NCBI GenBank assembly: GCA_965220975.1
Contig: OZ244855.1
Location: 2,384,967-2,448,966 of the forward strand
From: Candidatus Poriferihabitans sp.
GTDB lineage: Bacteria; Pseudomonadota; Gammaproteobacteria; Arenicellales; Poriferihabitantaceae
DNA length: 64,000 bases
Reading direction: 5' to 3'
The notes beneath the pieces were generated by a model, which was not told the origin of the DNA, did no database searches, and worked only from the letters and a program-made list of their open reading frames with translations. Numbering within the stretch: the stretch's first letter is position 1; the number at the start of each line of letters is the position of its first letter. The position numbers and the translations under genes were made by a program. This document shows positions 18,259-47,015 of the stretch, piece after piece.

Positions 18259-19872
18259 TTAATTTTGCTTGGTGCAGTTGGAACCTCGGCATTCGGCACC
18301 GAATGCCCCGGAGACCTGCCCGCCATCGGCAGCAGTGCCAACCCCGGACTGGAAGGTACCGACCAGACCATAGGGCGCAAAGTGATGTCCGTTTGACTGT
18401 CTCTCCGGTGCGACATTTCCATAGAATTGCGCGTTGAATGTATCGCCCTTGTCGCTTGCCCCTCCATCTGTAATATCCCCGGACAATTTGACTTCCCATG
18501 CGGAGTCCGGATCAGCTCCCGTTCCGGTCACCTTCTTGAAATTGCCAATCGTTCCGGAAAGGGTATCTTTGCCAGAGCCGGCGAATTTCGCTTCAAAGTT
18601 GGCATCCGCAGTAAATTCCCCGAAACCGGTTGCCACCCTGTCATCGTTGTCATCGGTCATGGTTCGGACATACAGGCCGGCAGCTCCACCGCTGTACGTT
18701 GCGGTCAGCACACCATCACCAGATAGAACGATGTCGCGGGTTTCTTGGTATTTTCTACCGCCACCGGCAAACAGATCAACCTGTATGGAAGTTACTTCAT
18801 TCTTGTCAGTGACGTCGGTGTTCCAGTACAAGCCGAAATTCAGGAAGTTGGGATTCTGCAACTTGGCCCATTTCGCGTCAACCTTGGTTGTTTCACTGAA
18901 ATTGGTTGGATGGAATGTAATGCCACTAACATTCTCCGCATTTATCGGAAGGGCTGTTCTTTGTGCGGGATTAGTAGGGTCAGCTCGTTCTCTATTATTA
19001 TCATTAAGCACAAATGCTGAACCACTCGGAAGGACAAATGTCCCCGGAACATCAACGAAGTCGCCTTTCAGTTCCCATCTACCATTATCAGAATTATTAT
19101 CAGGCGTATCAGGATCATAATCTGCATTCCATGTCCATGATTCGGTAAAGAAGTCGGAAGGAACCGCATCAACATTGAAAGATCCCCTTGCTGCAGGGGT
19201 GCCCGTAGGATGTAATGAAACCACGCCCGTAGCAGCAACAACGCCACTACTGCCTATAAGAGGCACACCCTTACCATTACCTGTGAAAAACGCAATATAG
19301 TTCTGGCTCAAGTAAACCTCGTTTTCAGTCCAGTAGCGTATGTCCTGTATCCGGCCGGATGATCCTGCCGGGTTGGGGATATGGTGACTGTTGCCAGTCC
19401 AGCCCCCAATGTTGGGACCCGTACCGCTTGGACCGTCTTCCCAGGTTTCGCTATTCGCAAGTTCCGCGGTCATCTCGCTAATGTGACTGCTTGTTAATGG
19501 CAATGCCTCGCTGCCTTCAATGGCATCCAGAAGTTCATCAGCCTGCGTTTTTTCAAGACCGGCCAGGGCCGTTGCTCCAGCGGGGGCAAATTCACCTTTT
19601 CTGGTTTCGGCTTCGTCCTCGAGAGCAGCTAGTTCAGCGCCACTGATTCCGCCATCTTTGGCTTCTTGTATGGCAGCGTCAACACAGTCAGCGTCCCCGC
19701 AATCTTTAATTTTCATGCTGATTGATTCTTTGGTAACCGGGTCACCGCCGCCGTTGTCGCCGCCACCTTCGCCACCGCCAGTTCCGCTGCCAGTGCTTGA
19801 ACTTCCGCCCCCGCAACCGGCGATGGCCAGCATTGCGGCCAAAAGTGCCGCCATAAAAATGTTCTGTTTCAT
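18259..19872 (-). CDS. surface-lipoprotein candidate with TbpB-like C-terminal barrel (SLP b)
   Basis: The lipobox is MKQNIFMAALLAAMLAIAGC, followed by a Gly-rich linker. The C-terminus reads TATYSGGAAGLY...FTADANFEAKF...LSGTIGNF...WEVKL...FYG...VSGAFGAE. Confidence 0.75.
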   Translation of the reverse strand: MKQNIFMAALLAAMLAIAGCGGGSSSTGSGTGGGEGGGDNGGGDPVTKESISMKIKDCGDADCVDAAIQEAKDGGISGAELAALEDEAETRKGEFAPAGATALAGLEKTQADELLDAIEGSEALPLTSSHISEMTAELANSETWEDGPSGTGPNIGGWTGNSHHIPNPAGSSGRIQDIRYWTENEVYLSQNYIAFFTGNGKGVPLIGSSGVVAATGVVSLHPTGTPAARGSFNVDAVPSDFFTESWTWNADYDPDTPDNNSDNGRWELKGDFVDVPGTFVLPSGSAFVLNDNNRERADPTNPAQRTALPINAENVSGITFHPTNFSETTKVDAKWAKLQNPNFLNFGLYWNTDVTDKNEVTSIQVDLFAGGGRKYQETRDIVLSGDGVLTATYSGGAAGLYVRTMTDDNDDRVATGFGEFTADANFEAKFAGSGKDTLSGTIGNFKKVTGTGADPDSAWEVKLSGDITDGGASDKGDTFNAQFYGNVAPERQSNGHHFAPYGLVGTFQSGVGTAADGGQVSGAFGAECRGSNCTKQN

Positions 19873-19902
19873 TTCGTCAAATTCCTCTTAATCAATATCG
19901 GG

Positions 19903-20943
19903 TTAGAAGTCGTAGCGGATGCCGACATAGTGCGTGACGGTTTCCGTTGTTGCATCGTCCACGTCGTCCTTGTCATGATCCTCGGATGCTCCTTCGTACC
20001 AGAATTGCAGTCCACCGCCCACGTTGTAGTAGATGCCGGCCATTACCCTGCTTGGCTCCTTTCCGCTCCCTTCCTTGACTTCCTTGCCTTTGTCGGTGCT
20101 GACATCGGCCTGCGCGTAGCCCAGCCATCCGGAAATCTGATCGGTGAAGCTTGCGCCGACATAGCCCGCCACAAACTCCTTGTCGGCCTGCGTCACGCCC
20201 TTCATGTCTTCTGCTTCATGGTTTGACCAGGCCAGTGAACCCCAGAACTGACCCAGGGACACCTTTGCCGAAACGCCCGCACGTGCATGGTCAAGCCCCA
20301 TGACGGCATCGGTTGCATCCTTGACTATGACCATGTCTTCATCTTCGTTGAGACCCGGCATTTTTTTCATTGCGGCGGTTACTGCAAGGTCGGTCTGGTC
20401 ATCGGCATCAAACGCCGCTGCAAACGACACGTTTTCGGTTGCGTCAATGCTTATGCCAACGCCCCCGCCATTGCCGGTCAGGTTGTTTTCGGTCGAATCG
20501 CTAAACCGCAGATCGGCTTCCAGAGACAACGGACCAACCGAATTTGAATACTTGATCGTGTTCGGTGCCCGATAGGGGGTCGCTCCTTCAACGGGTCCGA
20601 TCGTCCAGGTCGGATCCATGTGCGCGCCGGTGCTGTTGTAGAAGGCAGTCCACTGGTTGCCTACATCAACCCGCCCGAAACCGCCGGAAATGCCTGCGGT
20701 CGCGATGCGGGTGCTGGCAATGCCATCCGCAGCCTTGTCGGTACTGGTCGCAAACTCGTACCGGCCATGAGCGGTCAGGCCATTGCCGAGATCGGAATGC
20801 GCCTTGACGCCGAAACGCGATCCGACAGTTGCCATGTCGGTCGTTGAATCGCCCGTATCCTGAAACTGAAGCGCGTTGTTGATCCGACCGTACACGGTCA
20901 CCTCCGCCTGCACCCCAACCGGTATCATCACCGCGGCAGACAC
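19903..20943 (-). CDS. porin paralog b, lacking start codon and n-region
   Basis: Porin hallmarks are present (TVYGRINNALQF, GSRFGVKAHSDLGNGL, C-terminal GIRYDF). The upstream frame is stop-CGQICCTDDFPAEA-VSAAVMIPVGVQA with no ATG. Confidence 0.8.
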   Translation of the reverse strand: MSAAVMIPVGVQAEVTVYGRINNALQFQDTGDSTTDMATVGSRFGVKAHSDLGNGLTAHGRYEFATSTDKAADGIASTRIATAGISGGFGRVDVGNQWTAFYNSTGAHMDPTWTIGPVEGATPYRAPNTIKYSNSVGPLSLEADLRFSDSTENNLTGNGGGVGISIDATENVSFAAAFDADDQTDLAVTAAMKKMPGLNEDEDMVIVKDATDAVMGLDHARAGVSAKVSLGQFWGSLAWSNHEAEDMKGVTQADKEFVAGYVGASFTDQISGWLGYAQADVSTDKGKEVKEGSGKEPSRVMAGIYYNVGGGLQFWYEGASEDHDKDDVDDATTETVTHYVGIRYDF

Positions 20944-20953
20944 TGCCTCTGCC
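20921..20953 (-). repeat. dyad core site b
   Basis: The reverse complement reads GGCAGAGGCAGTGTCTGCCGCGGTGATGATACC. Confidence 0.8.
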
Positions 20954-21127
20954 GGGAAGTCGTCAGTGCAGCAGATCTGACCGCATCAGGAGATGTTCAA
21001 TTGCCCGATGCCTTCAGCAATTCGCAGACCAGGGCCTGTGTCTCCAGCAGTTGAGCTTGTGGTGGCTGTTCGAGAGGGCAACCATGCCCGGGCAGACAGG
21101 GACAGTGTTGCGCTTCGGACTTGAACC
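20954..21127 (-). repeat. conserved leader L upstream of porin b
   Basis: It is the reverse complement of the leader at 14323-14497. Its distal end overlaps repeat copy B. Confidence 0.8.
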
Positions 21128-23452: not shown

Positions 23453-23908
23453 TTACCCAACTCCACACTTTCGTCTGTTCAAAAAGTTACGTATCTTATG
23501 CTTGGAATCATGTGGATATATTGCTCTTTTTTTCCTTGACACGGAGGGAAGCACTTTCAAAAAATCTGATTTCAAGTCTTGATCGGCTGTGCATAATACA
23601 CGCACTTCGCTCGCAAAGGCTAGTTCAAGAACATGTTGGTCATTGGAATGAAACTGTAACTGTAGATCCTTCAGTTTTTTTGATGCTGCGTTTAATGAAT
23701 CTTCGCTGACCACTTGTGCAGATATCCTCCTTTGTTCAGTATAAAAGGCTAGAATTTTCTCGTTGTTTTTTAACTCTTTCCAGAATTGACCAGATTTTGT
23801 ATAAACGATAATGCCATCGCCTTTGTTAACCCATTTTCGCCAATCCTTCATCTCATCACTAGCAAAACGTGAATACAAACTTGTGTCTAGAATTGTCTTG
23901 ATACACAT
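23453..23908 (-). CDS. PIN-domain protein
   Basis: The acidic residues are in PIN-like positions: ILDTS near the N-terminus, SNDQHVLELA, and LCTADQDL. Confidence 0.5.
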   Translation of the reverse strand: MCIKTILDTSLYSRFASDEMKDWRKWVNKGDGIIVYTKSGQFWKELKNNEKILAFYTEQRRISAQVVSEDSLNAASKKLKDLQLQFHSNDQHVLELAFASEVRVLCTADQDLKSDFLKVLPSVSRKKRAIYPHDSKHKIRNFLNRRKCGVG

Positions 23909-23994
23909 GAATCAACTCTCCTAGTGATTTTGAAAAGACATCTACCTATTAACACTCTCAATCTTAATTATTCGATTATTAGCGAGAAATTCTC

Positions 23995-25248
23995 TCAGGA
24001 GTCAAGACCTAACAAATCGTTTGTTTCTCGCTTAAAAAAATCACGATAACCCTTAGGTGCCCCCAGCACATTGCCAGATTTGTCGATATTCATACTATGA
24101 ATAACACTACTTTTACCGTTGTCTGTAGGCTGAAAATACAAAATTGACAGATCTTCAGGTTTCAATTCCCCGCGCATAACACAGATTTGAAACCGATCTA
24201 AAAAATGGTCGCTATGTGTTTCAATTATGCAACTTTTCTCATTTTCAACTATAAATTGTGCAAGGCAAGCTTGAGATTCTGGATGCAGATGAACTTCAGG
24301 ATGCTGCATCAAAAAAACCGTATTCTCGGGTTTTTCGTAAAATGCGTTTGCCCATGGAATAACACTATAGATACCGTATCCCATATCCTGTAAATTATGC
24401 TTGCCAGCCTTTGTATGAACTATCACTTCAAACTGTTGGTTACTAGCTTCTATATGAATGTCTTCCCATAACTTTAAACTTCTACCAAAACTCGAGAGGA
24501 ATTTGCTATCTATAGTATCAGTATCGATCAATTTATTAGGACGACTCTCGTAAAATCTTTGGAGCGGCGTAGGTTGCATTGTTACAGGCATAAATACCCC
24601 AAATGCTGGCTCAGGCAACAAAGGCAACTCGACCCTAAGGAAATTGATAAACTTGCTAAAGGCTTCAACATCTTCGTCTTTATGACCTTGAAGTTTGAAT
24701 AATTTTGGATCCGCATTGTACGGAAGATGTCCATGCTTAATTGCACGTGAAAGCCAGGTTGAAATCTGAGAATGGGAAATCGCAGATCGGCTTAAGGAGA
24801 GACGAAAACCAGGAGTTTCAAATGACAAGTAAGGATTATGATGGTCATGTATAGAAATCTCAATTTGGCTTTCTTCCCAGCCTAACAAAATCCTCTTTTC
24901 TCTCGGATAACCGCTAGGCAAATGGTAACCGATTGGCGAACGATCAAAATCAAATCGCACCTTTTGATGACAATGATTGGCAAAAACACCCTCAAGGGAA
25001 AATGTATCGGATTTTGTTCGCGCGATAGTATTGAAATCTCCCATTGACAGAGGACTCAAATCAAAATAGTTGCGGTCATCAAGCTGGTGTAAGTTAGCAA
25101 GCTGAATTAACGCCTTATAACAACCGATGAAGGTGGATTTCCCGGAGCTATTGGGGCCGACTAAAAGAGTAACTCTGGCCAAATTTCCAGACTGTTCACC
25201 CGCAAAACATCGTACATCCCGAAGTTTAAGTTCAATCATTTTAGCCAT
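23995..25248 (-). CDS. ABC/RecF-like AAA ATPase (AAA_15/DUF3696-like)
   Basis: Walker A is GPNSSGKST. The Walker B/D-loop region is VFLMQHPEVHLHPESQ, followed by IIETHSDHF. Confidence 0.7.
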   Translation of the reverse strand: MAKMIELKLRDVRCFAGEQSGNLARVTLLVGPNSSGKSTFIGCYKALIQLANLHQLDDRNYFDLSPLSMGDFNTIARTKSDTFSLEGVFANHCHQKVRFDFDRSPIGYHLPSGYPREKRILLGWEESQIEISIHDHHNPYLSFETPGFRLSLSRSAISHSQISTWLSRAIKHGHLPYNADPKLFKLQGHKDEDVEAFSKFINFLRVELPLLPEPAFGVFMPVTMQPTPLQRFYESRPNKLIDTDTIDSKFLSSFGRSLKLWEDIHIEASNQQFEVIVHTKAGKHNLQDMGYGIYSVIPWANAFYEKPENTVFLMQHPEVHLHPESQACLAQFIVENEKSCIIETHSDHFLDRFQICVMRGELKPEDLSILYFQPTDNGKSSVIHSMNIDKSGNVLGAPKGYRDFFKRETNDLLGLDS

Positions 25249-25321
25249 TTAACACATTCTCTGAAATTTAATCGAAACCAGTAAACCAAGTATTACTATT
25301 TTTTAGCGGATCCTGTTGAGT

Positions 25322-26719
25322 CTAGACCTTATTGATGTATGGAAAGCAATAATGATCCCCGAGTGCTTCAGTTTTTTCTATAGAACAATTTTTATCACAG
25401 ACCTGATGCTTACGCTTTAGTTGATTAGGAATAAAAGTGTAATGCAGCTTACTTGCAGATGGAGGCCACCAATTTTCAGACATGATTAGTCTTATCATCT
25501 GAAGTACCATAAAACTTGCGAGATTGACACTAAATGGAAATACATTTTGATTTCTCGGCCCATTTTCCTGCTGTAAGTTGGCAACATAAGCCGGATCATC
25601 AAATGAACCATCTCGTTCTAAAACAACATCTGATGAGGTATACTGTCCATCGCATCGCAAGCAACGATGCCCAGGACCTACAGTAGTAACACTCCAAGAA
25701 GCTTGTCCCAGAGTTTCGTCGTCCTTGTTATCAACAAAAACACCACCAGAAATTACTGGTATGCAGTGTACATATGCGATACGGTTAATCACATCTTTTG
25801 GTAGCGGACGGTCTACAGCAGAAAATAATATGTCACAATCCAAAGCTGCAAGAAAGGCTGTTTCATTTTCTATGGGTTGTGCGTATGTCTGAACATCGAC
25901 TTGTTCAGCAGTACTGCTGTGACGGAGATGTTCAGATGCGACGTCTACCTTGTTTTGACCTACATGATCAATTCCTGCGTATAACAGACGATCAAGATTG
26001 TGTTCTTGAACTCTATCGTGATCAATCAAAATTAGTTGTCCTACTCCTATCCTTGCAAGAATCTCCGCAACCATGGTGCCTACACTACCCACCCCAACCA
26101 CTCCGATTCGAAGACGGACAAGGTTGTTTTGACAATGAAGCCCCCAAGTATCAAAAGTGCGTTGGAGAATTTTTCGACGTGGGGGAACGGGTACAGCATC
26201 ATCGTTGAACGTTACATGAAGACCTTTTCCCACTACACGAACTTTGTCACACCAAACACGATAAAACCGTTCTCCATTCCACATCCAGAGTCTTGCGCTC
26301 CAACTTTCATCAGTCCCAAGAGTAAGTCCAAGAAGTGGGAAACCAGTAACTCTAGCCAACGGTGAAATTCGGTCTCTTTCTGCAACAACATCAGGTCTAC
26401 TCATGTCCTGCCAGCCAGGTTTAAGATGGTTATGCATAAATACAAGACCAGCTTTTTTCTTGTAAGCAATACGAACCGCCCTCGTTAGGTAGTTAGCCGT
26501 AAAACTTACGTTTCCATGTAGCTTTCGCTCTCCAGAATTCGGCGGGATGATTTCATAGATAATTGAAGTCTTTCTTTTTGCGCCAGTACTTTGACGCCAA
26601 AGACCAAAACAAAGGTCTTCTTGAAGACTTCCTTGATAGAAGTGTTGCAACAATAGTTCTCGCGCTTGATCATGAACGTTAACTGGTATTGCAACTTCCT
26701 CTCTCATAACTGGCTCCAA
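25322..26719 (-). CDS. JAB (JAMM) deubiquitinase-like domain fused to an E1-like ThiF adenylyltransferase
   Basis: The N-terminal JAMM-type motif is FMHNHLKPGWQDMSRPD (HxH...SxxD). The central Rossmann segment is IGVVGVGSVGTMVAEILARIGVGQLILIDHDRV, and a CLRC zinc-type motif is present. Confidence 0.75.
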   Translation of the reverse strand: MEPVMREEVAIPVNVHDQARELLLQHFYQGSLQEDLCFGLWRQSTGAKRKTSIIYEIIPPNSGERKLHGNVSFTANYLTRAVRIAYKKKAGLVFMHNHLKPGWQDMSRPDVVAERDRISPLARVTGFPLLGLTLGTDESWSARLWMWNGERFYRVWCDKVRVVGKGLHVTFNDDAVPVPPRRKILQRTFDTWGLHCQNNLVRLRIGVVGVGSVGTMVAEILARIGVGQLILIDHDRVQEHNLDRLLYAGIDHVGQNKVDVASEHLRHSSTAEQVDVQTYAQPIENETAFLAALDCDILFSAVDRPLPKDVINRIAYVHCIPVISGGVFVDNKDDETLGQASWSVTTVGPGHRCLRCDGQYTSSDVVLERDGSFDDPAYVANLQQENGPRNQNVFPFSVNLASFMVLQMIRLIMSENWWPPSASKLHYTFIPNQLKRKHQVCDKNCSIEKTEALGDHYCFPYINKV

Positions 26720-27081
26720 AATCTGGCCAGGTGCCGATTAAGAAAAGTCTTCATGTTCTTTTCGTCGACTGCCAGCATGTCCCAAAAATCGCTTGGCGGC
26801 ACACTGAAAACCTTCCAGTTCGAGCCATTATGAGTGAATTCGCTATGGTGATGTATCTTGCTGTCAGGCAAACACTCGATACAAATCCAGTGTGGTGGAT
26901 ACTCTGGATATGTATCCTCCTGAAATCCGATACCTAAATTAAAAACTTGTCCGCGATAGCGACCTGATTGAACGAGATACTCAATTACAACCAGAGGATA
27001 TTGAAAATCATACGGCTTAAATTCTTTGACATTTAACCCGAACTCCTCCAGTTCTACCAATATTTTTTTCAGTATTTGCAT
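26704..27081 (-). CDS. E2-like (UBC/RWD-fold) protein
   Basis: The 125-aa protein carries YPEYPPHWICIEC and overlaps both neighbouring genes (16 nt and 13 nt). The assignment rests on this motif and on its position in a Ubl-E2-E1 operon. Confidence 0.5.
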   Translation of the reverse strand: MQILKKILVELEEFGLNVKEFKPYDFQYPLVVIEYLVQSGRYRGQVFNLGIGFQEDTYPEYPPHWICIECLPDSKIHHHSEFTHNGSNWKVFSVPPSDFWDMLAVDEKNMKTFLNRHLARFWSQL

Positions 27082-27524
27082 GCAACGGGGGTCGCCCCAC
27101 GATGCACGGCGATAAATTTATCACCTTTATGCAACTTAACTTCTTCGTCCAATCGATCATATTTCTGCTCTGTTAGAAGATTTTCAAGGTAGTAGCTTTT
27201 CAGATCATTGACATCAATGCTGGCTGGTCTCCCAGCAATTTCAAGAATCTTTTCCACAGTCACAGGATTTACACTGGTTTTTTGTTCTTCACCGTTGACT
27301 TGATAGTCAACAACTAGATAATCCGTTCTTGAAGCAACCTTAAACTGGTCACCATCACAAATCAGTATGCTTTCATTTGGGTTACCATGTTTGATACCAT
27401 CTGGTGTTATTAACACGGCATCATAGACCGAATCATCAACTGCCTTCAAAAGGCTTTCGACGGTCTGATTTGGACTTTCAAAAGAGATAGTTTGGTCTTG
27501 GATACAGATATTTATCTTTGTCAT
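27069..27524 (-). CDS. ubiquitin-like (multiubiquitin-type, two beta-grasp units) protein
   Basis: The 151-aa protein has a GAGG RBS and is the first gene of the operon. Two repeated segments about 70 aa long have beta-grasp-like patterns (ICIQDQTISFESPNQTV... and VDYQVNGEEQKTSVNPVTV...). Confidence 0.5.
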   Translation of the reverse strand: MTKINICIQDQTISFESPNQTVESLLKAVDDSVYDAVLITPDGIKHGNPNESILICDGDQFKVASRTDYLVVDYQVNGEEQKTSVNPVTVEKILEIAGRPASIDVNDLKSYYLENLLTEQKYDRLDEEVKLHKGDKFIAVHRGATPVACKY

Positions 27525-27896: not shown

Positions 27897-28985
27897 GTGG
27901 CTATGGCAGTGTCTGCCGCGGTGATGATTCCGGTTGGGGTGCAGGCGGAGGTGACCGTGTACGGTCGCGTCAACAACGCGCTTCAGTTTCAGGATAAGGG
28001 CGATTCAACGACCGACTTAAGTGGCATTTCATCGCGTTTCGGCGTCAAGGCGCATTCCGATCTCGGCAATGGCCTGACCGCTCACGGCCGGTACGAGTTT
28101 GGGACCAATACCGACAAGGCAGCGGATGGCATTGCCAGCACCCGCATCGCGACCGCAGGCATTTCCGGCGGTTTCGGGCGGATTGATGTGGGTAATCAGT
28201 GGACCGCTTACTACAATACCACTGGCGCAATGATGGATCCGACCTACACCATTGGCCCCATTGGTGGTGCAACCCCTTACCGCTCACCGAATACGATCAA
28301 ATATTCCAATTCGGTCGGGCCTCTTACTTTGGAAGCTGACTTGCGGTTAAGCGATTCTGCTGAAAACTTAAACGCTACTGGCGTTCCGGTTCTTTCCGGT
28401 CATGGCGGGGGCGTTGGTATCAGTATAGCCGCAACCGAAGCCCTATCGTTTGCCGCGGCGTTCGATCTTGATGATCAGACGGATTTGGTAGTTACCCCCA
28501 TGGCGGCAGCGATGCCCGGTCTTAACGAAGCGGGAGATGCCGTTGTAGTTAAAGAGGCAACCGCGGCCGTAAATGGAAATGAACACAACCGAGTTGGAGT
28601 TTCCGGGAAGGTATCACTCGGCCAATTCTGGGGATTATTGGCATGGTCTAACCATGAAGCAGAAAACGGCATGGGCGTAACGCAAGCGGATAAGGAATTC
28701 ATGGCGGCCTATGTGGGCATGAGCATGACCGATCAAATTTCCGGATGGATTGGTTTTGCGCAAGCCGATGTTACTACGAATAAAGGTATGGAAGTACAAG
28801 CTGGGCATGGTAAAGAACCTTCGAAAGTAATGGCAGGTTTGTACTACAACCTCGGCGGTGGATTGCGTCTTTGGTATGAAGGTGCTTCGGAAGATCATGA
28901 CAAAGACAGCATGACACCGACTGCGGCGGCACCTGTAACCACGGAAACCGTTACACACTTGGTCGGCATTCGCTACGACTTCTAA
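27897..28985 (+). CDS. porin paralog c, lacking a canonical start and n-region
   Basis: It is a porin paralog most similar to b. The upstream frame is stop-SQKATQTSY-VAMAVSAAVMIPVGVQA. The only in-frame ATG gives MAVSAAVM, which has no charged n-region and no RBS. Confidence 0.8.
   Translation: MAMAVSAAVMIPVGVQAEVTVYGRVNNALQFQDKGDSTTDLSGISSRFGVKAHSDLGNGLTAHGRYEFGTNTDKAADGIASTRIATAGISGGFGRIDVGNQWTAYYNTTGAMMDPTYTIGPIGGATPYRSPNTIKYSNSVGPLTLEADLRLSDSAENLNATGVPVLSGHGGGVGISIAATEALSFAAAFDLDDQTDLVVTPMAAAMPGLNEAGDAVVVKEATAAVNGNEHNRVGVSGKVSLGQFWGLLAWSNHEAENGMGVTQADKEFMAAYVGMSMTDQISGWIGFAQADVTTNKGMEVQAGHGKEPSKVMAGLYYNLGGGLRLWYEGASEDHDKDSMTPTAAAPVTTETVTHLVGIRYDF
27905..27931 (+). repeat. dyad core site c
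   Basis: The sequence is GGCAGTGTCTGCCGCGGTGATGATTCC. On its 5' side it keeps GTGGCT, as the expression copy f does. Confidence 0.8.
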
Positions 28986-29014
28986 CCCGTATTGATTAAG
29001 AGGAATATTAAACA

Positions 29015-30268
29015 ATGAAACAGAATATTTTTATCGCGGCCTTATTGGCCGGTATGCTGGCACTTGCAGGTTGCGGGGGCGGAGGTAGCGTAACCGCGCC
29101 ACCGGCAAATACCATGGTTGATGACATGGACGACGACAAGGAAATGACTGATGATACGGAAGTGGTCGAGGAAGAGGAAACCGAACCAACTCCTGCTACA
29201 TTTTCTAATGTAGACGCAAGCGGAGCATCCTTTGTAACTGGAGAGGGTGGCGCACCTGAAGAAGGTGTTGTAAGCCCGCTTGGCTCTGGCAGAAATGCTA
29301 TAGTTGGCAATGTAACCCTTACATGTCCCTCAACTGCGGGTACGAATGGCTGCCAATGGCGTATTAGCGGCGGCAACATTCAAGCAACCGGCGGAGTAAC
29401 TGCTGTTGTAACCCCATTACCGGTCACGCCAACAGTGGTTGCTACACCGGCAGACGGAAACTGGTTGTCAAAAGGTAGTATTGTTGAGGCTGTGCCAGCT
29501 GCAGGCACTCTCACTACATATGATGTTGTTATAAATGGAGTGCAACAGCAAATAGATGGTTCAGGTCGTTTAGGAACCACCCCAGACTCAAAAGTTGAAG
29601 ATTTACTCATTAGCCATACGAGAACAGAATCTGATAATTTAAGCACGGCCGCTAATGATACCAATGATTTTCTTGTTTTTGGAACTTGGTTAGAGCCAGC
29701 AACTCTTACGAACACATCGGTTACACCAAAACAAGTTTGGCATGGCAGCATGCCGCGCGTTGCACCTGTAAGAAAACAAGCTGATAATGCAACTTATACG
29801 GGCGGTGTGCATGGCTTTTTCAAGGCAGGAGCAAGTGGAACTTGGACGGCATGGACAGGCGCTGCGCTATTAACGGCTAATTTTGTGAAAGGCGAAGTTA
29901 GCGGGATGATTGACAATGATGCAAGTAACACAACAGTAGACGTTCTTGATGAACCAGGAATAATGAGTGCCGGTGTTTCTCATATCTCATTGAAAGGCGC
30001 AACATTCGCGGATAGTCTTAGCGGGAAAGTAACAATTGTAGGGACTGGAGCTGCTCCGGGATCTAACGCAATAACTAGAAACGCACCATCATCAGGAACA
30101 TGGGAGGGTGGTTTCTTTGGTCCTTCAGGGGCTGACCCAACGGGTATTGCCGGAGCTTTTAATGCTGAAAGAAAAGAAGCCGCTGCCAAATCTACCGGAT
30201 TGCCAACCACGCTGCACAGTGCGGTAGAAGTTTTTCATATTAACGGAGCATTTGAAGCACAACGCTAG
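29015..30268 (+). CDS. surface-lipoprotein candidate with TbpB-like C-terminal barrel (SLP c1)
   Basis: The lipobox is MKQNIFIAALLAGMLALAGC, followed by the acidic linker DDMDDDKEMTDDTEVVEEEETE. The C-terminus reads ATYTGGVHGFF...LLTANF...VSGMI...GIAGAFNAE. Confidence 0.7.
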   Translation: MKQNIFIAALLAGMLALAGCGGGGSVTAPPANTMVDDMDDDKEMTDDTEVVEEEETEPTPATFSNVDASGASFVTGEGGAPEEGVVSPLGSGRNAIVGNVTLTCPSTAGTNGCQWRISGGNIQATGGVTAVVTPLPVTPTVVATPADGNWLSKGSIVEAVPAAGTLTTYDVVINGVQQQIDGSGRLGTTPDSKVEDLLISHTRTESDNLSTAANDTNDFLVFGTWLEPATLTNTSVTPKQVWHGSMPRVAPVRKQADNATYTGGVHGFFKAGASGTWTAWTGAALLTANFVKGEVSGMIDNDASNTTVDVLDEPGIMSAGVSHISLKGATFADSLSGKVTIVGTGAAPGSNAITRNAPSSGTWEGGFFGPSGADPTGIAGAFNAERKEAAAKSTGLPTTLHSAVEVFHINGAFEAQR

Positions 30269-30290
30269 CCTTGATTGCTTTAATCAAATA

Positions 30291-30316
30291 CCGGGGCGTA
30301 ACAACCCCGGTTTTTT
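30291..30316 (+). terminator. CCGGGG-N8-CCCCGG hairpin plus T6
   Basis: The sequence is CCGGGGcgtaacaaCCCCGGTTTTTT. Confidence 0.65.
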
Positions 30317-30342: not shown

Positions 30343-31215
30343 ATGAAACGAAACATTGTAACAACCGCCTTGCTTGCGGTCATGTTGGTAATAGCCGGTT
30401 GTGGAGGCGGCGGATCGGGTAATTCTAATCCCGTTATTCAACCAAGCGCAAGCGATGATACCGCCGTACAAATAATGGCTAGGAAACTGCATGAGGTACT
30501 TGGCTTAATTGATTTAAGCGTTTCCGAGGACGGGGTAATTTCTAGAACAAACTCTACATTGTCATCTGATTTTAATGCGTTCAATCTTGATAGCAGTCGC
30601 TTTGGCAGAGAGGTATTAGCCAAGACAACCGAAACCGTTCCCGGTGTCAAGCCCGGTTGGACTGGCGGCCATTTCAAGAATGGAGATAAAGAGGCGCGCG
30701 TTTACTGGATCCCGGAAACCAGCAGAGATGCCTATTCCTATTACGGATGGTGGCTTAACCGGGACAATGCGAATGGGGGTTACAGTCTGGTTTTCGTTTC
30801 TACCAGTACGGCCATCGGTGAGGGATCGGCAGCTGCGGATGTATCGAGCGCAACTGGTGAGGCAACCTATACAGGCGGATCCGCCGGACAATATGCCATC
30901 TATAGCACAGGTGCAAAGGCGGCTGAATCGGGAGATTTCACCGCGGATGTAATGCTAAAAGCCAATTTCGATACGGCTAAGGTAAACGGAACGGTAACCG
31001 GGTTTATGGTAGATGGTAGTGAAAAGAACTGGTCGGTTACCATACAGGAAAATGCCGATGATCCGGTAGCAAGCCGTTATCATCTTGGAAAGGCCATCTG
31101 GGAAATAGACGGAGAGCAGCCAAGCAGTTCGGATAAGGATGCTGGTGAATATATAGTCGGTTTCCAGGATCTGGATGTCAATGGCGTTCTAAATTACGCG
31201 GGCGGAATTTTTTAA
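30343..31215 (+). CDS. short TbpB-like lipoprotein (SLP c2), with its 3' end displaced by a T6 tract
   Basis: The lipobox is MKRNIVTTALLAVMLVIAGC, and the body reads ATYTGGSAGQYA...FTADVMLKANF...VNGTVTGF. The ORF stops at GGIF*, but the family C-terminus ...SMIGTFGTTKQ* lies in the -1 frame up to 31270. Confidence 0.7.
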   Translation: MKRNIVTTALLAVMLVIAGCGGGGSGNSNPVIQPSASDDTAVQIMARKLHEVLGLIDLSVSEDGVISRTNSTLSSDFNAFNLDSSRFGREVLAKTTETVPGVKPGWTGGHFKNGDKEARVYWIPETSRDAYSYYGWWLNRDNANGGYSLVFVSTSTAIGEGSAAADVSSATGEATYTGGSAGQYAIYSTGAKAAESGDFTADVMLKANFDTAKVNGTVTGFMVDGSEKNWSVTIQENADDPVASRYHLGKAIWEIDGEQPSSSDKDAGEYIVGFQDLDVNGVLNYAGGIF

Positions 31216-31850: not shown

Positions 31851-31881
31851 GAAAAACCGGGGCGGTTTTATGCCCCGGTTT
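31851..31881 (-). terminator. CCGGGGC hairpin terminator after SLP d
   Basis: On the minus strand the sequence reads AACCGGGGCataaaacCGCCCCGGTTTTTC. Confidence 0.65.
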
Positions 31882-31892: not shown

Positions 31893-33149
31893 CTATGGCT
31901 GAATCTGAGTACCGAATACTCCAATCATTTCAGCTCCTTGGTGTTCGGCGCTGAAGTCTCCCATTATTACAGTTGGTGCTTTGCTTCCCGAACCACCATA
32001 GGAATTAGCACGCCATGCTTCTCCGGTTGCATCACCCTCAACTCCATCAAGCGTCCAAATTGAAGTGCCAGCGGCGGTGGGGGAATAAGCTCCTGAAGCA
32101 TCGCCAGTTATTTCCTTCAACTGAACGCTCCAGTTTCGGTCTTCACCATCAGCTCCCTTGAAGCTTGAAATTGTGCCTTCTAGCTTAGCACGAGTAATAC
32201 CACTAGCAGCAAATGTTGCCGTCAAGGTTGCGGTTGCCGTGAATCCTCCGGAATCGTTAGGTACGGAATACAAGCCTACCGTATCGCCAGTATAGGTTGC
32301 GGTTGCCGTGGAATCTAAGTGTGCATTCGTCAGAGCTAAAGGAGTTTGGTTGTGGTTGTTACGAAAAAAGTTTACCATTGTAACCGGATTACCTGCGTTA
32401 GTGCTACGAGTTACCCACCAGCCCCACTTGATATCCACTTTGCGTTTTGCCTCTGGATCGGTTGGCTCAAAAGTCCAAGTAGTATTAGTAACAGTTTTAG
32501 GTTGGCCGTTTTGTGATGTACATATACTATCCCCCGAGCATGTGAACATTCCGGGAATTCCGAAATAGGTTCCGCTAACCTTGAGGTCTTCCAGGGTTCC
32601 ATCAGATTTTTGCGATCTTGGATGTTCCTTTGCATCCCTGCCGCCAAATTCTGTGGACTTGGCTTGTGCAAGTTTCCGAGGATTATCGATCGTTTTCTCG
32701 TTAGCGTCAAGTACAGCACCATCAACGGTTATCATCGCATGGCCCTTGTCGGCATCTTTGGCACTAGTAAAAAATTCAGGTGTTGCTCCCAGAGTGACAC
32801 TACTATTACCAATCAACCTGTGAAGAGTTCTAGCATCTGCCGCCGCTTTTTGTGCATCCGCTTTGCTGGTGTCAACCTTGCACAGCATGCTTGATTCGTC
32901 ATAGGCAAGGCCATCACCAGTACATGAGGCTTTTCTTGCATTCTCTGATTGTGTGTTTATCTCGTTGTCCAACTCTTCCTGAGTGTATGTTTTCGTGGTT
33001 TGATCTTCATCACTATCGGTCTGGGTACTCGATGGTGCAGCCCCTTCCACTACTGTGGCATTCGCTGGCGTGCTGGAATTACCGCCTCCGCAACCTGCGA
33101 GTGCCAGCATACCGGCCAATAGTGCCACCATGTATATATTCTGCTTCAT
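31893..33149 (-). CDS. surface-lipoprotein candidate with TbpB-like C-terminal barrel (SLP d)
   Basis: The lipobox is MKQNIYMVALLAGMLALAGC. The C-terminus reads ATYTGDTVGLY...FTATATLTATF...LEGTISSF...W.VQL...MIGVFGTQIQP. Confidence 0.75.
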   Translation of the reverse strand: MKQNIYMVALLAGMLALAGCGGGNSSTPANATVVEGAAPSSTQTDSDEDQTTKTYTQEELDNEINTQSENARKASCTGDGLAYDESSMLCKVDTSKADAQKAAADARTLHRLIGNSSVTLGATPEFFTSAKDADKGHAMITVDGAVLDANEKTIDNPRKLAQAKSTEFGGRDAKEHPRSQKSDGTLEDLKVSGTYFGIPGMFTCSGDSICTSQNGQPKTVTNTTWTFEPTDPEAKRKVDIKWGWWVTRSTNAGNPVTMVNFFRNNHNQTPLALTNAHLDSTATATYTGDTVGLYSVPNDSGGFTATATLTATFAASGITRAKLEGTISSFKGADGEDRNWSVQLKEITGDASGAYSPTAAGTSIWTLDGVEGDATGEAWRANSYGGSGSKAPTVIMGDFSAEHQGAEMIGVFGTQIQP

Positions 33150-33177
33150 TGTATATTTCCTCTAAATCAATATCGGC

Positions 33178-34428
33178 TTAGAAGTCAAACCGGATACCGG
33201 CCTTGTGGTTAGAACTGTTGTCCATGCCCGCGGTATCCGGATCTTTGGAGATGCCTTCATAGAACAGTTGCAAGCCACCGCCCATTTTGTGGTACAGACC
33301 CAGCGTGACCGCGCTCGGATTTGCATCCATCCCTTCGGTCTCGCTCTGGCCAAAACCAATCAACGCTTGAGTGCTGTCAGACAGATGTATACCGCCCCAC
33401 ACTTGCGCATATTCGGTTTCGGTTTCCTTGCCGTTGTCGGTTACATTCTTGGTACCAAGGGCCACGATGCCGTAGAACTGTCCCATCGAAAGCTTGGCCG
33501 AAACGCCTAGCCGCTCGGTTTCCGCTCCAGCCATGGCTTTGGTAACCGTACAAGCCCCGTTACTGGTACCAGCGTTGGGGGTCAAGGTGGGTGCCTCTAC
33601 TGGATTTGTTGCTTCGGCATTGTTTTTGGTGAACTTTGCATTATCTGCCTCAATCATCGCATCGCTCAAGCAATACGTCCTGTCATACATATCCTTGTCT
33701 CCAACATAGGCATAACCGGAATACGGGCCGGTAAGGGCTGTTCCTGTATCTTTGGGTGCCTTGGTTCTTTTCGTTCCCAGAACTTCCGCTTGTGCGGCAG
33801 TAAGGCCATTTACAGGCAAGGTGTATCTATTCCCATACACGGCCGGGGTTACATGATCCGACCGGTCTTCATTGTCGTAGGCAAAGCCGAGGGTAAGATT
33901 GTCGGTAACCGCAACGCGTACCCCGAAGCCGCCGCCGTCTCCGGCCAGGCCATCGGTACCTTCTTCATCACCGCCGCCGTTCAGGCGCATGTCCAACTCC
34001 AAACTGAGCGGGCCAAATGAATTGCCATACTTGATGGTATTCGATGACCGGAACGGGGTATCACCACCACCGCCCTGAGTCCAGGACGGATCCATGTCGA
34101 CACCGGTCGAGTTGTAAAAGGCACTCCACTGGTTGCCAATGTCAATACTGCCGAAACCGCCGGCAACACCAACTGAAGCAATCCGGTTACTAAGTCCGGT
34201 GTCCTTTTTGTCGGTAGTTGTGCCAAACTCGTAATGACCGCGTGCGGTCAGGCCATTGCCGATGTCGGCACTGCCCTTGAGACCGAAACGCGATCCGACA
34301 GTCGAGACATCGGTCGTCGAGTCCTCGCCCGCCTTGCCGGAATCGGCAAACTCAATTACATTTCGGATGCTTCCGTAGACCGTTGTCTCCGCCTGTGCCC
34401 CGACGGGCATCATCACCGCGGCAGACAC
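33178..34428 (-). CDS. porin paralog d, lacking start codon and n-region
   Basis: It is a porin paralog most similar to e. The upstream frame is TAG-LDPLLKTLVAEA-VSAAVMMPVGAQA with no ATG. Confidence 0.8.
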   Translation of the reverse strand: MSAAVMMPVGAQAETTVYGSIRNVIEFADSGKAGEDSTTDVSTVGSRFGLKGSADIGNGLTARGHYEFGTTTDKKDTGLSNRIASVGVAGGFGSIDIGNQWSAFYNSTGVDMDPSWTQGGGGDTPFRSSNTIKYGNSFGPLSLELDMRLNGGGDEEGTDGLAGDGGGFGVRVAVTDNLTLGFAYDNEDRSDHVTPAVYGNRYTLPVNGLTAAQAEVLGTKRTKAPKDTGTALTGPYSGYAYVGDKDMYDRTYCLSDAMIEADNAKFTKNNAEATNPVEAPTLTPNAGTSNGACTVTKAMAGAETERLGVSAKLSMGQFYGIVALGTKNVTDNGKETETEYAQVWGGIHLSDSTQALIGFGQSETEGMDANPSAVTLGLYHKMGGGLQLFYEGISKDPDTAGMDNSSNHKAGIRFDF

Positions 34429-35586: not shown

Positions 35587-36103
35587 AGCCTTTTGTTCTA
35601 GTTCTTCGCAAAGTTTTTTTAAATTCATCACGTTCATGGCAAAGTTGCCTAACCCGAAATGGTTGATCGGTACAAAAGGCAGTCTTGAGTAACCAGTATC
35701 CTTGACGCTGGGCAAGCACCACCAAATATTCCTCGCGATACCATAGCAATGTGTTAATCCTATTTTGCCGTCTATTCTGCCACTCATCAATTTTCGAATG
35801 AGTTGTTGCATTTTCTATCACCCATCGTACCCAACGGAGTCGCTCACAACGACGCAGGTCGGGTGTTCGTTCTTCCTCAACATAACCTTCTTGAATCAAG
35901 TGCCAGAATGATGCCCAGCGTCCCGCTGTCTCAGGAATGCGACGACAACCTATTCTTAAACCACGAAACTCAAGACTAGCCCGTGCGATCTCGCACATGA
36001 AAATGCGGTTCAATTCATGTTCATAGGCCCCCCAATTGCCACCAAAATCATCGAGTAGAAGAAGAGCCGGCGGAGTCATTCGTCCGCATTCTGAGCATGC
36101 CAA
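35585..36103 (-). CDS. hypothetical protein (172 aa), partner of the DUF3800 gene
   Basis: The ORF overlaps the 3' end of the DUF3800 gene by 28 nt. I do not recognise a family. Confidence 0.45.
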   Translation of the reverse strand: MACSECGRMTPPALLLLDDFGGNWGAYEHELNRIFMCEIARASLEFRGLRIGCRRIPETAGRWASFWHLIQEGYVEEERTPDLRRCERLRWVRWVIENATTHSKIDEWQNRRQNRINTLLWYREEYLVVLAQRQGYWLLKTAFCTDQPFRVRQLCHERDEFKKTLRRTRTKG

Positions 36104-36801
36104 ACCAAGATATTGAATTTGGTGAAAGCAAAGGAGGATGTGAAGGAAAGTGCCCGTATGCCAAATTGTTCACATAGGCGGTTGATGATCTCCATCTTTG
36201 CACTATTGCCGGTTAGTCTCCGATTTGCATAGGTCAGTGCTCCAATCAAGAGGTCAGTAACTTGTAGAATCTCACTTTCATGAGATCGAATTTGCTGTAC
36301 ACGCTCGATAAACTCCTGATTGAAATCATGGAGGCTGTGGGTCAGAAATTTGTGGAGTTTATGTGTTTTTAGTCCTCCTCGTGAATCCTTCAGGTCAAGG
36401 TATACATGATAGTGTTGTGGAGCGAGAAAAACAGGGCGCAACATTGTAAAGTACATCTTGTAATACCAGTCATCATGTGTCTGATTAAAGTTAAGATGAT
36501 TAAGTTTTGCCTTGTCTGGGACGACCAGCCCTCGAAATCGCAACCGATCATCATCAAGGAAGAAATCGATTAGCCCCAAATAGAAATCGGCCCTAGCAGG
36601 TGAGACTTTAGTCCATTTTGCCTCGAAAGTGGATTTCAAACCATGTTTAATTTTCAGAGCACGTATTTGCTTCGAGAGATCATGGACAAAACGCTTTTCG
36701 CAAATTACAGCCCCCCAAGCCATAACAGGAATCTGGTCATGCTCAAGGTGGCAACTCTCATCACAATATATATTGAAAGTTTTCGGTGTCATAATACTCA
36801 C
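36076..36801 (-). CDS. DUF3800-family protein
   Basis: The N-terminal FNIYCDESCHLEHD motif is typical of DUF3800, and the protein is 241 aa. Confidence 0.6.
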   Translation of the reverse strand: MSIMTPKTFNIYCDESCHLEHDQIPVMAWGAVICEKRFVHDLSKQIRALKIKHGLKSTFEAKWTKVSPARADFYLGLIDFFLDDDRLRFRGLVVPDKAKLNHLNFNQTHDDWYYKMYFTMLRPVFLAPQHYHVYLDLKDSRGGLKTHKLHKFLTHSLHDFNQEFIERVQQIRSHESEILQVTDLLIGALTYANRRLTGNSAKMEIINRLCEQFGIRALSFTSSFAFTKFNILVWHAQNADE

Positions 36802-37465: not shown

Positions 37466-37498
37466 GGCAGAGGCAGTGTCTGCCGCGGTGATGATGCC
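37466..37498 (+). repeat. dyad core site e
   Basis: The sequence is GGCAGAGGCAGTGTCTGCCGCGGTGATGATGCC. Confidence 0.8.
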
Positions 37499-38738
37499 CG
37501 TCGGGGCACAGGCAGAGGCGACTGTTTATGGTCGCATTAACAATGTACTGGAGTTCAACGATTCCGGCAAGGCTGGAGAAGACACGACGGCCGATGTCTC
37601 GACTGTCGGGTCGCGTTTCGGCATCAAGGGCAGTGCCGACATCGGCAATGGCCTGACCGCTCGGGGGCATTACGAGTTCGGGCTGAACACCGACAAGAAG
37701 GAAACCGGTCTCAACAATCGAATTGCTTCGGTGGGTGTTGCCGGTGGTTTCGGAAGCATTGATGTCGGCAACCAGTGGAGCGCCTTCTACAACACCACCG
37801 GCGTGGACATGGATCCGAGCTGGAATCAGGGCGGCATCGGGGGTACGCCTTTTCGAGCCTCCAACACCGTCAAGTATGGCAATTCAGTGGGCCCGTTGAA
37901 TCTGGAACTGGATTTGCGTCTGAACGACGGCGGCGATGAAACGGGTACCGAGGGACTTGCCGGTGAAGGCGGCGGACTCGGAGTGCGAGTTGCGGTTACC
38001 GACAACATTACCCTGGGCTTTGCCTACGACAATGAAGACCGGTCGGACATGATCACCCCGGCAGTGTATGGTCATAGATATGATCTTAGTGATCTTACTG
38101 ATGATCAGATAAAGGTTTTGGATTTGAGGAGGTCGAAAGGTACAAATGAAACCAGCGATAGCACAGAAAACAACGGCTCCTATACTGGGCTGACTTATGC
38201 CGGTCCCAGTGCGAAGGATGGAATAGCCAGCAAGCTGTCAGACTATGATGGAGTCTACTGCCTGAGCAGTGCAATGGTTACCGAAAAGAAAGGCAAGATC
38301 ACCGCGAATGATGCGGTAGCAACCAAGGATGTCGGAAAGCTTGGGTTGAAAGAAGGCGATGCTTGTACAGTTACAAAAGACAAGACCGGGGCGGAAACCG
38401 AGCGGATGGGCGTTTCAGCCAAGATTTCACTGGGTCAGTTCTATGGAATCTTTGCCTACAGCACCAAGAACGTAACCGACAATGGCAAGGAGACCGAGAC
38501 CGAATATGCACAAGTCTGGGGAGGCGTACACCTCGCCGACAGCACTTCGGCACTGATTGGTTTTGGCCAGAGCGAGACGGAAGGGATGGATGCAAACCCG
38601 ACCGCGTTGACACTGGGTCTGTACCACAACATGGGCGGCGGATTGCAACTTTGGTATGAAGGTCAGAGCAATGATCCGGACATGGCCGGCATGGACAACA
38701 GCGTCAACCACAAGGCCGGTATCCGGTTTGATTTCTAA
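37476..38738 (+). CDS. porin paralog e, lacking start codon and n-region
   Basis: Porin hallmarks are present. The upstream frame is TAA-IPCDFSRCYRDRPLKAEA-VSAAVMMPVGAQA with no ATG. Confidence 0.8.
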   Translation: MSAAVMMPVGAQAEATVYGRINNVLEFNDSGKAGEDTTADVSTVGSRFGIKGSADIGNGLTARGHYEFGLNTDKKETGLNNRIASVGVAGGFGSIDVGNQWSAFYNTTGVDMDPSWNQGGIGGTPFRASNTVKYGNSVGPLNLELDLRLNDGGDETGTEGLAGEGGGLGVRVAVTDNITLGFAYDNEDRSDMITPAVYGHRYDLSDLTDDQIKVLDLRRSKGTNETSDSTENNGSYTGLTYAGPSAKDGIASKLSDYDGVYCLSSAMVTEKKGKITANDAVATKDVGKLGLKEGDACTVTKDKTGAETERMGVSAKISLGQFYGIFAYSTKNVTDNGKETETEYAQVWGGVHLADSTSALIGFGQSETEGMDANPTALTLGLYHNMGGGLQLWYEGQSNDPDMAGMDNSVNHKAGIRFDF

Positions 38739-38766
38739 CCCGATATTGATTTAGAGGAATTAAATA

Positions 38767-41253: not shown

Positions 41254-41284
41254 AAACCGGGGCGTAAAAAGCCCCGGTTTTTTG
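41254..41284. terminator. bidirectional CCGGGGC hairpin terminator
   Basis: The sequence is AAACCGGGGCgtaaaaaGCCCCGGTTTTTT. Confidence 0.65.
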
Positions 41285-42798: not shown

Positions 42799-43551
42799 TT
42801 ATCGTTCAATAAAAATAACGCCATTTTCAACATAGGTATCGTCGGATACAACAAACCCGCCAGAATAAATGAAACTGTTGCCGCTACCGCCAGCAACCGC
42901 ACCGATTACTTCATCAGCCCCAACCAAACCACCTAAATCACCACCGACACCCCGAAAACTACTGATTCCTTTCACACTCCCATCGGCATTGAATGTGCCA
43001 TTGATACGAAGGTCGCTGGAATCCGTAATGCTTTTCCCGGTGATTGTTCCATCATCAAAATTTATTGTCGCAGAAAATGCTTTTCGTTCACTCACTTTTG
43101 GATGTGACCAGATACCGGTTGTTCGAGTAGGGGTATTTTCTCCACGTGGAATAATGACCTCTGTGTCGCCATCCCGAACATAGATACCACGATTTGAACC
43201 GCCTCCACTCACCTCTCTTCCAAGATATTCTGAGAACATGACTTGATATCTTCCGAACAAGGTTGCAGAGCCGGATGATGTGGTTATTGGGGTTACTTCT
43301 GTTTGAGGCCACATCCCTGCATAGGCCACTGGTTTATTACCACGGAGGCCAATAGCAAATGATACTTTTCCGTTGTCTTTGTAACTTTCTAGCGTTTCAT
43401 GCCCCCAAACGCTACTCAATTCAAATGCGCCAGTGGCATCAGGCGCGACAATTGAATACCGGTCAATTGATTCCTCGCCACCACAAGCAACCAATAATAC
43501 ACAGGCTGTCGAAAGGAAAATATACTTCATAAACTTTTTCAATAAAGCCAT
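42799..43551 (-). CDS. lipoprotein (250 aa) with a TbpB-like C-terminal region
   Basis: I chose the start at MALLKKFMKYIFLSTACVLLVAC (lipobox), because the track N-terminus runs through the terminator hairpins. The C-terminus includes ATINFDDGTITG...INGTFNADGSVKG...VIGAVAG. Confidence 0.6.
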   Translation of the reverse strand: MALLKKFMKYIFLSTACVLLVACGGEESIDRYSIVAPDATGAFELSSVWGHETLESYKDNGKVSFAIGLRGNKPVAYAGMWPQTEVTPITTSSGSATLFGRYQVMFSEYLGREVSGGGSNRGIYVRDGDTEVIIPRGENTPTRTTGIWSHPKVSERKAFSATINFDDGTITGKSITDSSDLRINGTFNADGSVKGISSFRGVGGDLGGLVGADEVIGAVAGGSGNSFIYSGGFVVSDDTYVENGVIFIER

Positions 43552-43593
43552 CTCTTCTATTTGTTTCGTTTTTGTTTCGTTGTTTATCATGAG

Positions 43594-43672: not shown

Positions 43673-43687
43673 TACAAGTAACGGTTA

Positions 43688-45829: not shown

Positions 45830-45857
45830 TGTGTATTCCTCTTAAATTGAATCAGGC

Positions 45858-47009: not shown

Positions 47010-47015
47010 TTATTT

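Follow-up and report, generated by a model that had tools for sequence, protein, structure and literature searches.

A conserved hinge between porin and surface-lipoprotein genes as a likely seam of recombination in cassettes of Candidatus Poriferihabitans

Antigenic variation by gene conversion, with one expression locus, silent partial copies and mosaic variants, is known from pilE/pilS of Neisseria and msp2 of Anaplasma, and the R64 shufflon (Rci/sfx) and vsa/vpma of Mycoplasma are inversion systems. SusC/SusD shufflons of Bacteroides are described in Nakayama-Imaohji 2009 (PMC2747901) and Porter 2020 (PMC7482406), and the survey of Milman 2023 (PMC9881135) gives them as known inversion targets. 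In the lpl cluster of Staphylococcus aureus a conserved block between variable regions is the site of homologous recombination (Tsuru and Kobayashi 2008, PMC2568036), and Rci of R64 with its asymmetric sfx sites is covered by the abstract of PMC11852207. Here we analyse a window of 64,000 nucleotides (nt), positions 2,384,967-2,448,966 of the single 3.37-Mb contig of a Candidatus Poriferihabitans genome (G000), which holds six co-oriented gene pairs, or cassettes (a to f), each a Porin_4 porin followed by a lipoprotein (SLP, surface lipoprotein). Our subject is the conserved stretch that joins the two genes, which we call the hinge and which the initial annotation had flagged in cassette c:

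28981-29085, + strand: hinge of cassette c, comprising the last porin codon and stop, a gap with the ribosome-binding site (RBS), and the SLP signal-peptide/lipobox block
27905-28985, + strand: porin c, apparently silent, 5'-truncated, homologous to the expressed copy from GGCAGTGTCTGCCGCGG (27905), without RBS and without full signal peptide
29015-30268, + strand: SLP c, a lipoprotein with a predicted Slam-type C-terminal barrel

Porin c ends in ...CGCTACGACTTCTAA, its stop codon occupying 28983-28985. The gap of 29 nt that follows (28986-29014, CCCGTATTGATTAAGAGGAATATTAAACA) contains the RBS AGAGGAA, and SLP c starts at 29015 with a signal-peptide/lipobox coding block of ~69 nt (29015-29083) encoding MKQNIFIAALLAGMLALAGCGGG. 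In general terms, the hinge consists of the last ~20 nt of the porin, an AGAGGAA-bearing gap of 26-31 nt and the initial ~69 nt of the SLP. Two further cassettes of the same architecture, g (+) and h (-), lie ~180-190 kb upstream of the window and bring the total of G000 to eight. A sister species of the same genus (G006; OZ241374.1, an Arenicellales metagenome-assembled genome with a complete chromosome) has 11 cassettes (prefix G6_) in strictly alternating orientation, all with a 26-31-nt gap and the same signal peptide, and another sister species (G002) has at least four of like architecture. The hinge was found in these 8 + 11 + at least 4 cassettes of the three species.

We consider it likely that the hinge is both an expression module and the seam at which porin and SLP lineages were re-paired by recombination. 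It would first of all be an expression module, its RBS restarting translation after the porin stop and its coding part supplying the lipoprotein signal peptide with the lipobox (LAGC). It would also be the sole homologous segment between porin and SLP, set between highly diverged bodies, so that crossovers or gene-conversion tracts would repeatedly have been resolved there, re-pairing the two lineages and partly homogenising the hinge itself within each genome. We infer RecA-type homologous recombination at the hinge as the mechanism, and such recombination would feed new porin-SLP combinations to a single expression site.

The two genes of a cassette have different genealogies. Maximum-likelihood trees of the porins (5' block excluded) and of the SLPs (C-terminal 260 residues) are strongly incongruent: the porins form the clades (a, G6_07), (h, G6_04), (b, c), (d, e) and (G6_01, G6_06), and the SLPs the clades (h, G6_07), (b, (G6_01, G6_11)), (e = g, G6_09) and (c, G6_06). 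In approximately unbiased (AU) tests the porin clades were rejected on SLP data (p 0.03 to 8e-7) and the SLP clades on porin data (p 1e-3 to 9e-26), and pairwise distances between porin bodies and between SLP bodies give a correlation of only r = 0.14 (18 cassettes). In sliding windows of 90 columns, the correlation with the porin genealogy, 0.7-0.89 as long as the window lies in the porin, drops across the hinge to 0.35 and then to 0.09, and that with the SLP genealogy rises over the same stretch from ~0.1 through 0.38-0.57 to 0.77-0.92; the switch from one genealogy to the other is located exactly at the hinge. Distances within the gap track neither gene (0.05 and -0.12), and those within the signal-peptide block correlate at 0.01 with the porin and 0.34 with the SLP. 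In BLAST comparisons of cassettes that share a porin type, homology spans porin, gap and signal peptide and ends at SLP nt 65-74 (six independent pairs); in the SLP-sharing pair G6_01/G6_11 it starts 23 nt before the porin stop. The pairwise homoplasy index (PHI), applied as a check for mosaic recombination, detects it in the porins (z -5.9), in the SLPs (z -4.5) and in their concatenate (z -33.9); in none of the three data sets did any of 200 permutations reach the observed value. The initial annotation had suggested that porin or SLP alone could be exchanged as a segment; incongruent trees, AU tests, the correlation of distances and PHI all point to such re-pairing, on an evolutionary timescale only.

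The same annotation had described variable bodies bracketed by short conserved blocks, and this description held. The conserved blocks are the porin 5' block, the hinge and the terminator. Divergence is not uniform along the cassettes in a sliding-window comparison but dips at the hinge, with values of 0.22-0.25 there, 0.37-0.46 in porin bodies and 0.5-0.6 in SLP bodies. The start of the SLP gene, said to be far more conserved over its first ~65 nt than the body, has a mean pairwise nucleotide identity of 0.78-0.82 over codons 1-24 and of 0.37 over the next eight codons. The junction, reported as nearly the same in b to e and recognisable in a and f, matches its pattern exactly in b, d and e (0 matches expected), carries a 1-nt deletion in c, and is diverged but alignable in a and f. 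The core of the signal peptide, ATGCTGGCNCTNGCNGGNTGCGGGGG, has seven matches in the window at up to three mismatches versus 0 in 100 shuffles, six of them in cassette SLPs and one in a neighbouring protease-lipoprotein gene. Conservation extends to synonymous positions. Among residues identical in a cassette pair, the fraction encoded by the same codon is 0.61 in G000 and 0.75 in G006 for the SLP signal-peptide block versus 0.37-0.45 and 0.42 for SLP bodies, and 0.79 and 0.81 for the porin 5' block versus 0.52 and 0.46 for porin bodies. RNA structure was rejected as the cause of hinge conservation, no significant fold being predicted for the RNA of this stretch (z -1.0 and -0.25).

The hinge has a history of its own, its nearest neighbours following neither the porin nor the SLP. 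The hinges of G6_03 and G6_05 are 97% identical, with porins at 42% and SLPs at 29%; the hinge of G6_02, the cassette whose porin diverges most, matches that of G6_10 at 96% identity; and the hinges of e and h are 92% identical. Five cassettes of G000 (a, e, f, g and h) carry the signal-peptide variant K-T-Y, eight of G006 carry K-I-Y and three of G002 carry N-I-Y. Each species thus has a variant of its own, common to paralogs whose orthologs elsewhere differ, a sign of partial concerted evolution. In quartets of two ortholog pairs, the ratio of sites grouping by genome to sites grouping by ortholog is 27:38 for the hinge in porin-ortholog quartets and 13:53 in SLP-ortholog quartets, 115:1300 for porin bodies, 138:1445 for SLP bodies and 29:5 for the porin 5' block. 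The 5' block thus evolves in concert, and the hinge only partly.

Several results weigh against this reading, and some of them would be accounted for if the hinge were conserved for function only, that is, for its RBS and for a signal peptide recognised by Sec/Lgt/LspA/Lol/Slam, with re-pairing by illegitimate or microhomology events elsewhere. Every hinge copy has an RBS and a lipobox. Within G000 the same-codon fraction of the signal-peptide block (0.61) does not exceed that between species (0.64), so its conservation is partly old or functional rather than due to homogenisation, and gap conservation between species (0.71) is close to that within them (0.66 and 0.74). Signal-peptide type often tracks SLP lineage, MKQNIF going with the b/G6_01/G6_11 and c/G6_06 SLP clades. 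In addition, the SLP N-terminal region beside the hinge is unalignable, and crossovers there would be indistinguishable from crossovers in the hinge. We nevertheless regard function alone as an improbable explanation. Other lipoproteins at the same loci (30343-31215, 41306-42544 and 16949-18196), presumably exported by the same pathway, have clearly different signal-peptide sequences, so function tolerates variation; the species-specific variants are shared by paralogs rather than orthologs; the hinge genealogy is uncoupled from both flanking genes; and the synonymous excess is even across all 24 codons of the signal-peptide block and is therefore not merely a start-region effect. A reading without any recombination, in which equally old duplicates diverged fast in their bodies under diversifying selection and stayed constrained at the hinge, is extremely unlikely. 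It would fit the extreme protein divergence between cassettes (SLPs 21-35% and porins 40-55% identical), but synonymous sites of conserved residues approach saturation in the bodies and not in the blocks, the trees are incongruent with AU rejection both ways, PHI is significant, and one long tract is completely identical beside unrelated sequence:

40183-41238, + strand: 3' 1056 nt of SLP e, 100% identical to cassette g (genome 2,197,141-2,198,196)

This tract has a sharp breakpoint inside the SLP, at ...DLKKTDASVPALAGW, and is the product of a recent gene conversion. Past its end the two cassettes remain homologous, at lower identity, into the protease-lipoprotein gene downstream (2355 nt, 93.5% overall). 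Cassettes e and g have the same orientation, are both of the silent type and lie 236 kb apart, so gene conversion without inversion operates here. The claim that exchange is independent of inversion fits this event and cannot be extended to exchange at large, as a reciprocal crossover between opposite hinges would amount to an inversion. The e-g breakpoint also tells against exchange at the hinge alone, as do a mosaic of f and g inside the porin and the chimeric SLP of h, whose N-terminus is G6_08-like and whose C-terminus is G6_07-like; breakpoints also fall outside the conserved blocks. Finally, the longest perfect matches between hinges measure 9-38 nt (16-26 nt for comparisons that involve f), and those between terminators 10-35 nt, except in the e-g pair, whose identical tract runs through the terminator. 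Such lengths (9-38 or 10-35 nt) are at or below those that RecA-type recombination uses efficiently, so exchange at the hinge is probably rare. The porin-SLP pairings of f/G6_05 and g/G6_09, kept since the species split, are consistent with this.

The stability of these two pairings also speaks against a programmed second site, by which we mean a recombinase site in the hinge where inversions between opposite hinges re-pair porins and SLPs at high frequency, as in a two-tier shufflon. In favour of such a site, orientation alternates in both complete genomes, so that the hinges form inverted repeats, the 5' block resembles a recombinase core (GGCAGA-N7-TCTGCC) and is invariant within a genome, and Xer-like genes lie near cassettes in G000 and G006. 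The hinge, however, has neither the 5' core motif nor a comparable dyad and is polymorphic within the genome, unlike the invariant 5' block; the Xer-like family occurs also in the cassette-less genome G004 and is often a pseudogene, and the serine invertase gene found near cassette h of G000 is absent from G006 and G002, both rich in cassettes. We consider a programmed site in the hinge decidedly unlikely. The wider proposal of two-tier surface variation, in which the 5' block swaps cassettes behind the promoter and the hinge actively re-pairs eight porins with eight SLPs within a living population, is to us an improbable one. Our preferred reading remains an expression module that was also, from time to time, the seam of re-pairing.

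A single cassette of G000, f, appears to be expressible, judging from its sequence, and the other seven appear silent and 5'-truncated:

45858-46922, - strand: porin f, the only porin with ATG, RBS and full signal peptide (MKKSLVAAAVSAAVMMPVGAQA)
43688-45829, - strand: SLP f
45761-45860, - strand: hinge of cassette f (putatively the only expressible cassette), with a gap of the 'GCCTGATTCAATTTAAGAGG' type, common to the G006 ortholog G6_05
46882-46899, - strand: conserved 5' block in f (GGCAGTGTCTGCCGCGGT), the same 18 nt that open all seven presumed silent porins

The silent copies are cut just after the start codon at an identical block of 18-24 nt, located at 14504, 20930, 27905, 34415 and 37472 in the window and, for g and h, outside it. 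All seven begin at the same nucleotide, (G)GCAGA-GGCAGTG-TCTGCCGCGGTGATGAT, and their left flanks still encode a degenerate K-S/T-L-V-A. The SLPs of these silent cassettes retain an RBS and an ATG. The block resembles two inverted arms around a 7-bp spacer. The spacer differs between species, the G006 block reading GCAGA-GGTCGTT-TCTGCC in 11/11 copies, and the exact block was found in no other species among 40 relatives. At their 5' ends, cassettes f and g are identical over 87 nt, a hint of transfer from a silent copy into the expression site. The leader of f (46923-47100, - strand) is AT-rich and promoter-like, with an extended -10 (TGGTAATAT) and phased ATACCA repeats upstream; the expression copy of a third species (L033) has this extended -10 too. 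When the f cassette and its leader (43400-47400) were scanned for promoters and terminators, by a simple method that missed the real hairpins, three promoter-like sites were found versus 4.4 expected, none in the hinge of f.

The ortholog of f is silent in G006, and cassettes therefore change place over time. The leader of f has no homology to that of the candidate expression copy of G006. No G006 cassette other than this copy (L027, G006 2,932,052-2,932,074) follows an ATG. It reads ATGAAAATCCTTAG..., and its A4, compared with A6 in f, puts the start 2 nt out of frame; G006 as assembled may thus lack a porin of this family that is expressed in frame, or the A-tract may act as a second on/off switch. 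On the 3.5-kb contig of the third species (L033, JAJEAV010000021.1), an expression-type porin start lies at one end, and at the other, beside a P4-type integrase gene, a silent copy from which nothing but the ATG is missing. A leader of ~180 nt is common to the silent cassettes a, b and h (14323-14503, 20948-21127 and genome ~2,204,768-2,204,947; 91-94% identity) and contains the tRNA-3'-end-like GGTTCAAGTCCGAAGCGCACCA; ARAGORN found no tRNA in the window, where the copies of a and b lie.

Xer-like tyrosine recombinase genes lie 8 kb from a cassette in G000 and 2 kb from one in G006. The G000 gene (genome 2,212,794-2,213,801) is 8 kb from h, and a Hin/Mpi-like serine invertase gene (2,227,080-2,227,634) 22 kb from it. 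No dedicated recombinase emerged from these candidates, the serine invertase being missing from G006 and G002 and the Xer-like family, partly pseudogenised, not being restricted to genomes with cassettes. Homologs of the two lie 2 kb apart in a further genome (G003), an arrangement more suggestive of a mobile element than of a shufflon enzyme.

At its 3' end the cassette is closed by a hairpin:

16939-16961, + strand: terminator hairpin of a
18221-18245, - strand: terminator hairpin of b
30290-30316, + strand: terminator hairpin of c, variant CCGGGG-CGTAACAA-CCCCGG plus T6
31853-31878, - strand: terminator hairpin of d
41257-41283, + strand: terminator hairpin of e
43597-43669, - strand: two terminator hairpins downstream of SLP f, a variant (43645-43669) and a canonical one (43597-43621)

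The motif CCGGGGC-N-GCCCCGG has five exact matches in the window (0 expected), and the hairpin with a T-run occurs only six times in the 3.37-Mb genome, every time at a cassette 3' end. The earlier statement that each cassette ends in this hairpin is right in that the hairpin is specific to cassette ends, and too strict in that c, the first hairpin of f and h have imperfect variants. With folding energies of -16 to -22 kcal/mol (z -2.4 to -4.1), the cassette hairpins make good intrinsic terminators; the hairpin would mark the 3' boundary of the unit and serve primarily in transcription termination. In related genera (L013, L014, L015, L017) the orthologous porin is single-copy and monocistronic and is directly followed by a similar terminator (AAAACCGGAGCGAAATGCTCCGGTTTTTTT). 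The cassette terminator, being like that one, probably derives from the ancestral terminator of monocistronic porin genes; in the present genus the SLP was thus placed between the porin and its terminator, and the porin-SLP fusion with its hinge is an invention of the genus.

The cassettes and the remaining hinges of the window are arranged as follows:

14508-15437 (porin) and 15466-16920 (SLP), + strand: cassette a
15435-15534, + strand: hinge of a, with a diverged gap and a signal peptide of the MKHKTY type, common to e and h
19903-20943 (porin) and 18259-19872 (SLP), - strand: cassette b
19804-19905, - strand: hinge of b
27897-28985 (porin) and 29015-30268 (SLP), + strand: cassette c
33178-34428 (porin) and 31893-33149 (SLP), - strand: cassette d
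33081-33180, - strand: hinge of d
37476-38738 (porin) and 38767-41238 (SLP), + strand: cassette e
38736-38835, + strand: hinge of e
45858-46922 (porin) and 43688-45829 (SLP), - strand: cassette f

The orientation in G000 alternates, + - + -, and its eight bicistronic porin-SLP cassettes form convergent pairs. Cassettes g and h (genome 2,195,775-2,204,767, loci L001 and L007) are the fourth such pair; between them lie a protease-lipoprotein gene and a gene for a lipoprotein of 703 amino acids, and directly upstream of g an IS256-like transposase gene. Defence- or conflict-like genes (ThiF/E1 fusion, AAA_21 ATPase, DUF3800) occupy 23453-27524 and 36076-36801 of the window, between cassette pairs. 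GC skew is mixed in sign over genome 2.165-2.425 Mb (cassettes g to e) and steadily negative again between e and f. The disturbance is compatible with large inversions in the past or with islands that were acquired; we rejected it as proof that inversions took place at the cassettes, the boundaries being too blurred to assign. An exact-protein look-up with porin f gave no match, and two scans of metagenomes, for the 5' block and for the hinge pattern, gave none either.

The SLPs of G000 and G006 (8 + 11) all have a lipobox, L(A/T)GC, followed by GG. An AlphaFold2 model of the C-terminal 230 residues of the SLP gives a barrel with a pLDDT of about 80, and the top 35 Foldseek matches in the Protein Data Bank (PDB) are all NHBA, HpuA, PmSLP, fHbp, TbpB, HphA or LbpB. 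A sequence-profile search of the PDB with the C-terminal domain gave 0 matches, and NCBIfam slam_lipo and Pfam TbpB_B_D match the SLPs below threshold only. From the model, the SLPs are predicted to carry a C-terminal eight-stranded beta-barrel of the TbpB_B_D/slam_lipo type. The genome has one Slam gene (PF04575; 1,552,481-1,553,296), ~0.64-0.83 Mb from the cassettes and not adjacent to them.

Modular surface variation is known from pathogens and gut Bacteroides. No case of it has been described in a marine gammaproteobacterium, whether free-living or symbiotic, or with general porins as the partners of Slam-type lipoproteins; the host here is probably a sponge symbiont. Our literature search brought up no such system built of a porin and a Slam-type lipoprotein, and the word 'porin' is absent from the Milman 2023 survey (PMC9881135). 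The hinge offers a case of a two-gene surface unit that evolves as two independently assorting halves with its expression signals kept. This suggests that the porin needs no co-evolved lipoprotein partner of its own, and bears on the role of unexplained porin-SLP pairs. If the improbable two-tier system were true, a sponge symbiont could display up to 64 porin-lipoprotein coats, for instance in evasion of phages or of host recognition.

Among the known systems, the SusC/SusD shufflons share with these cassettes a bicistronic unit of outer-membrane barrel and surface lipoprotein, several inverted copies of which one lies behind a promoter, and recombination in the 5' part of the barrel gene. 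They differ in that the barrel here is a Porin_4 general porin and not a TonB-dependent SusC, the lipoprotein is of Slam/TbpB type and not a SusD, the host is an Arenicellales gammaproteobacterium, and a second conserved hinge lies between genes with independent genealogies. The R64, vsa and vpma systems are comparable for the 5' block only, where a 7-bp spacer with one conserved and one weakly conserved arm sits inside the 5' coding region and the silent copies lack a start; the hinge has no such core. With pilE/pilS and msp2 the locus has in common a single expression locus with silent copies, conserved blocks around variable segments, and mosaicism, and with Neisseria also a conserved 3' element (there the Sma/Cla repeat). 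Unlike them, it is built of a two-gene unit with an internal hinge, and its silent copies lack the start codon and promoter only. The lpl cluster likewise has incongruent phylogenies on the two sides of a short conserved block. In lpl, however, the block lies in the middle of the reading frame, the 3'-intergenic-5' unit stays linked and the genes stand in tandem, whereas here that very unit is the conserved block, the bodies on either side of it are reshuffled, and the cassettes are inverted pairs.

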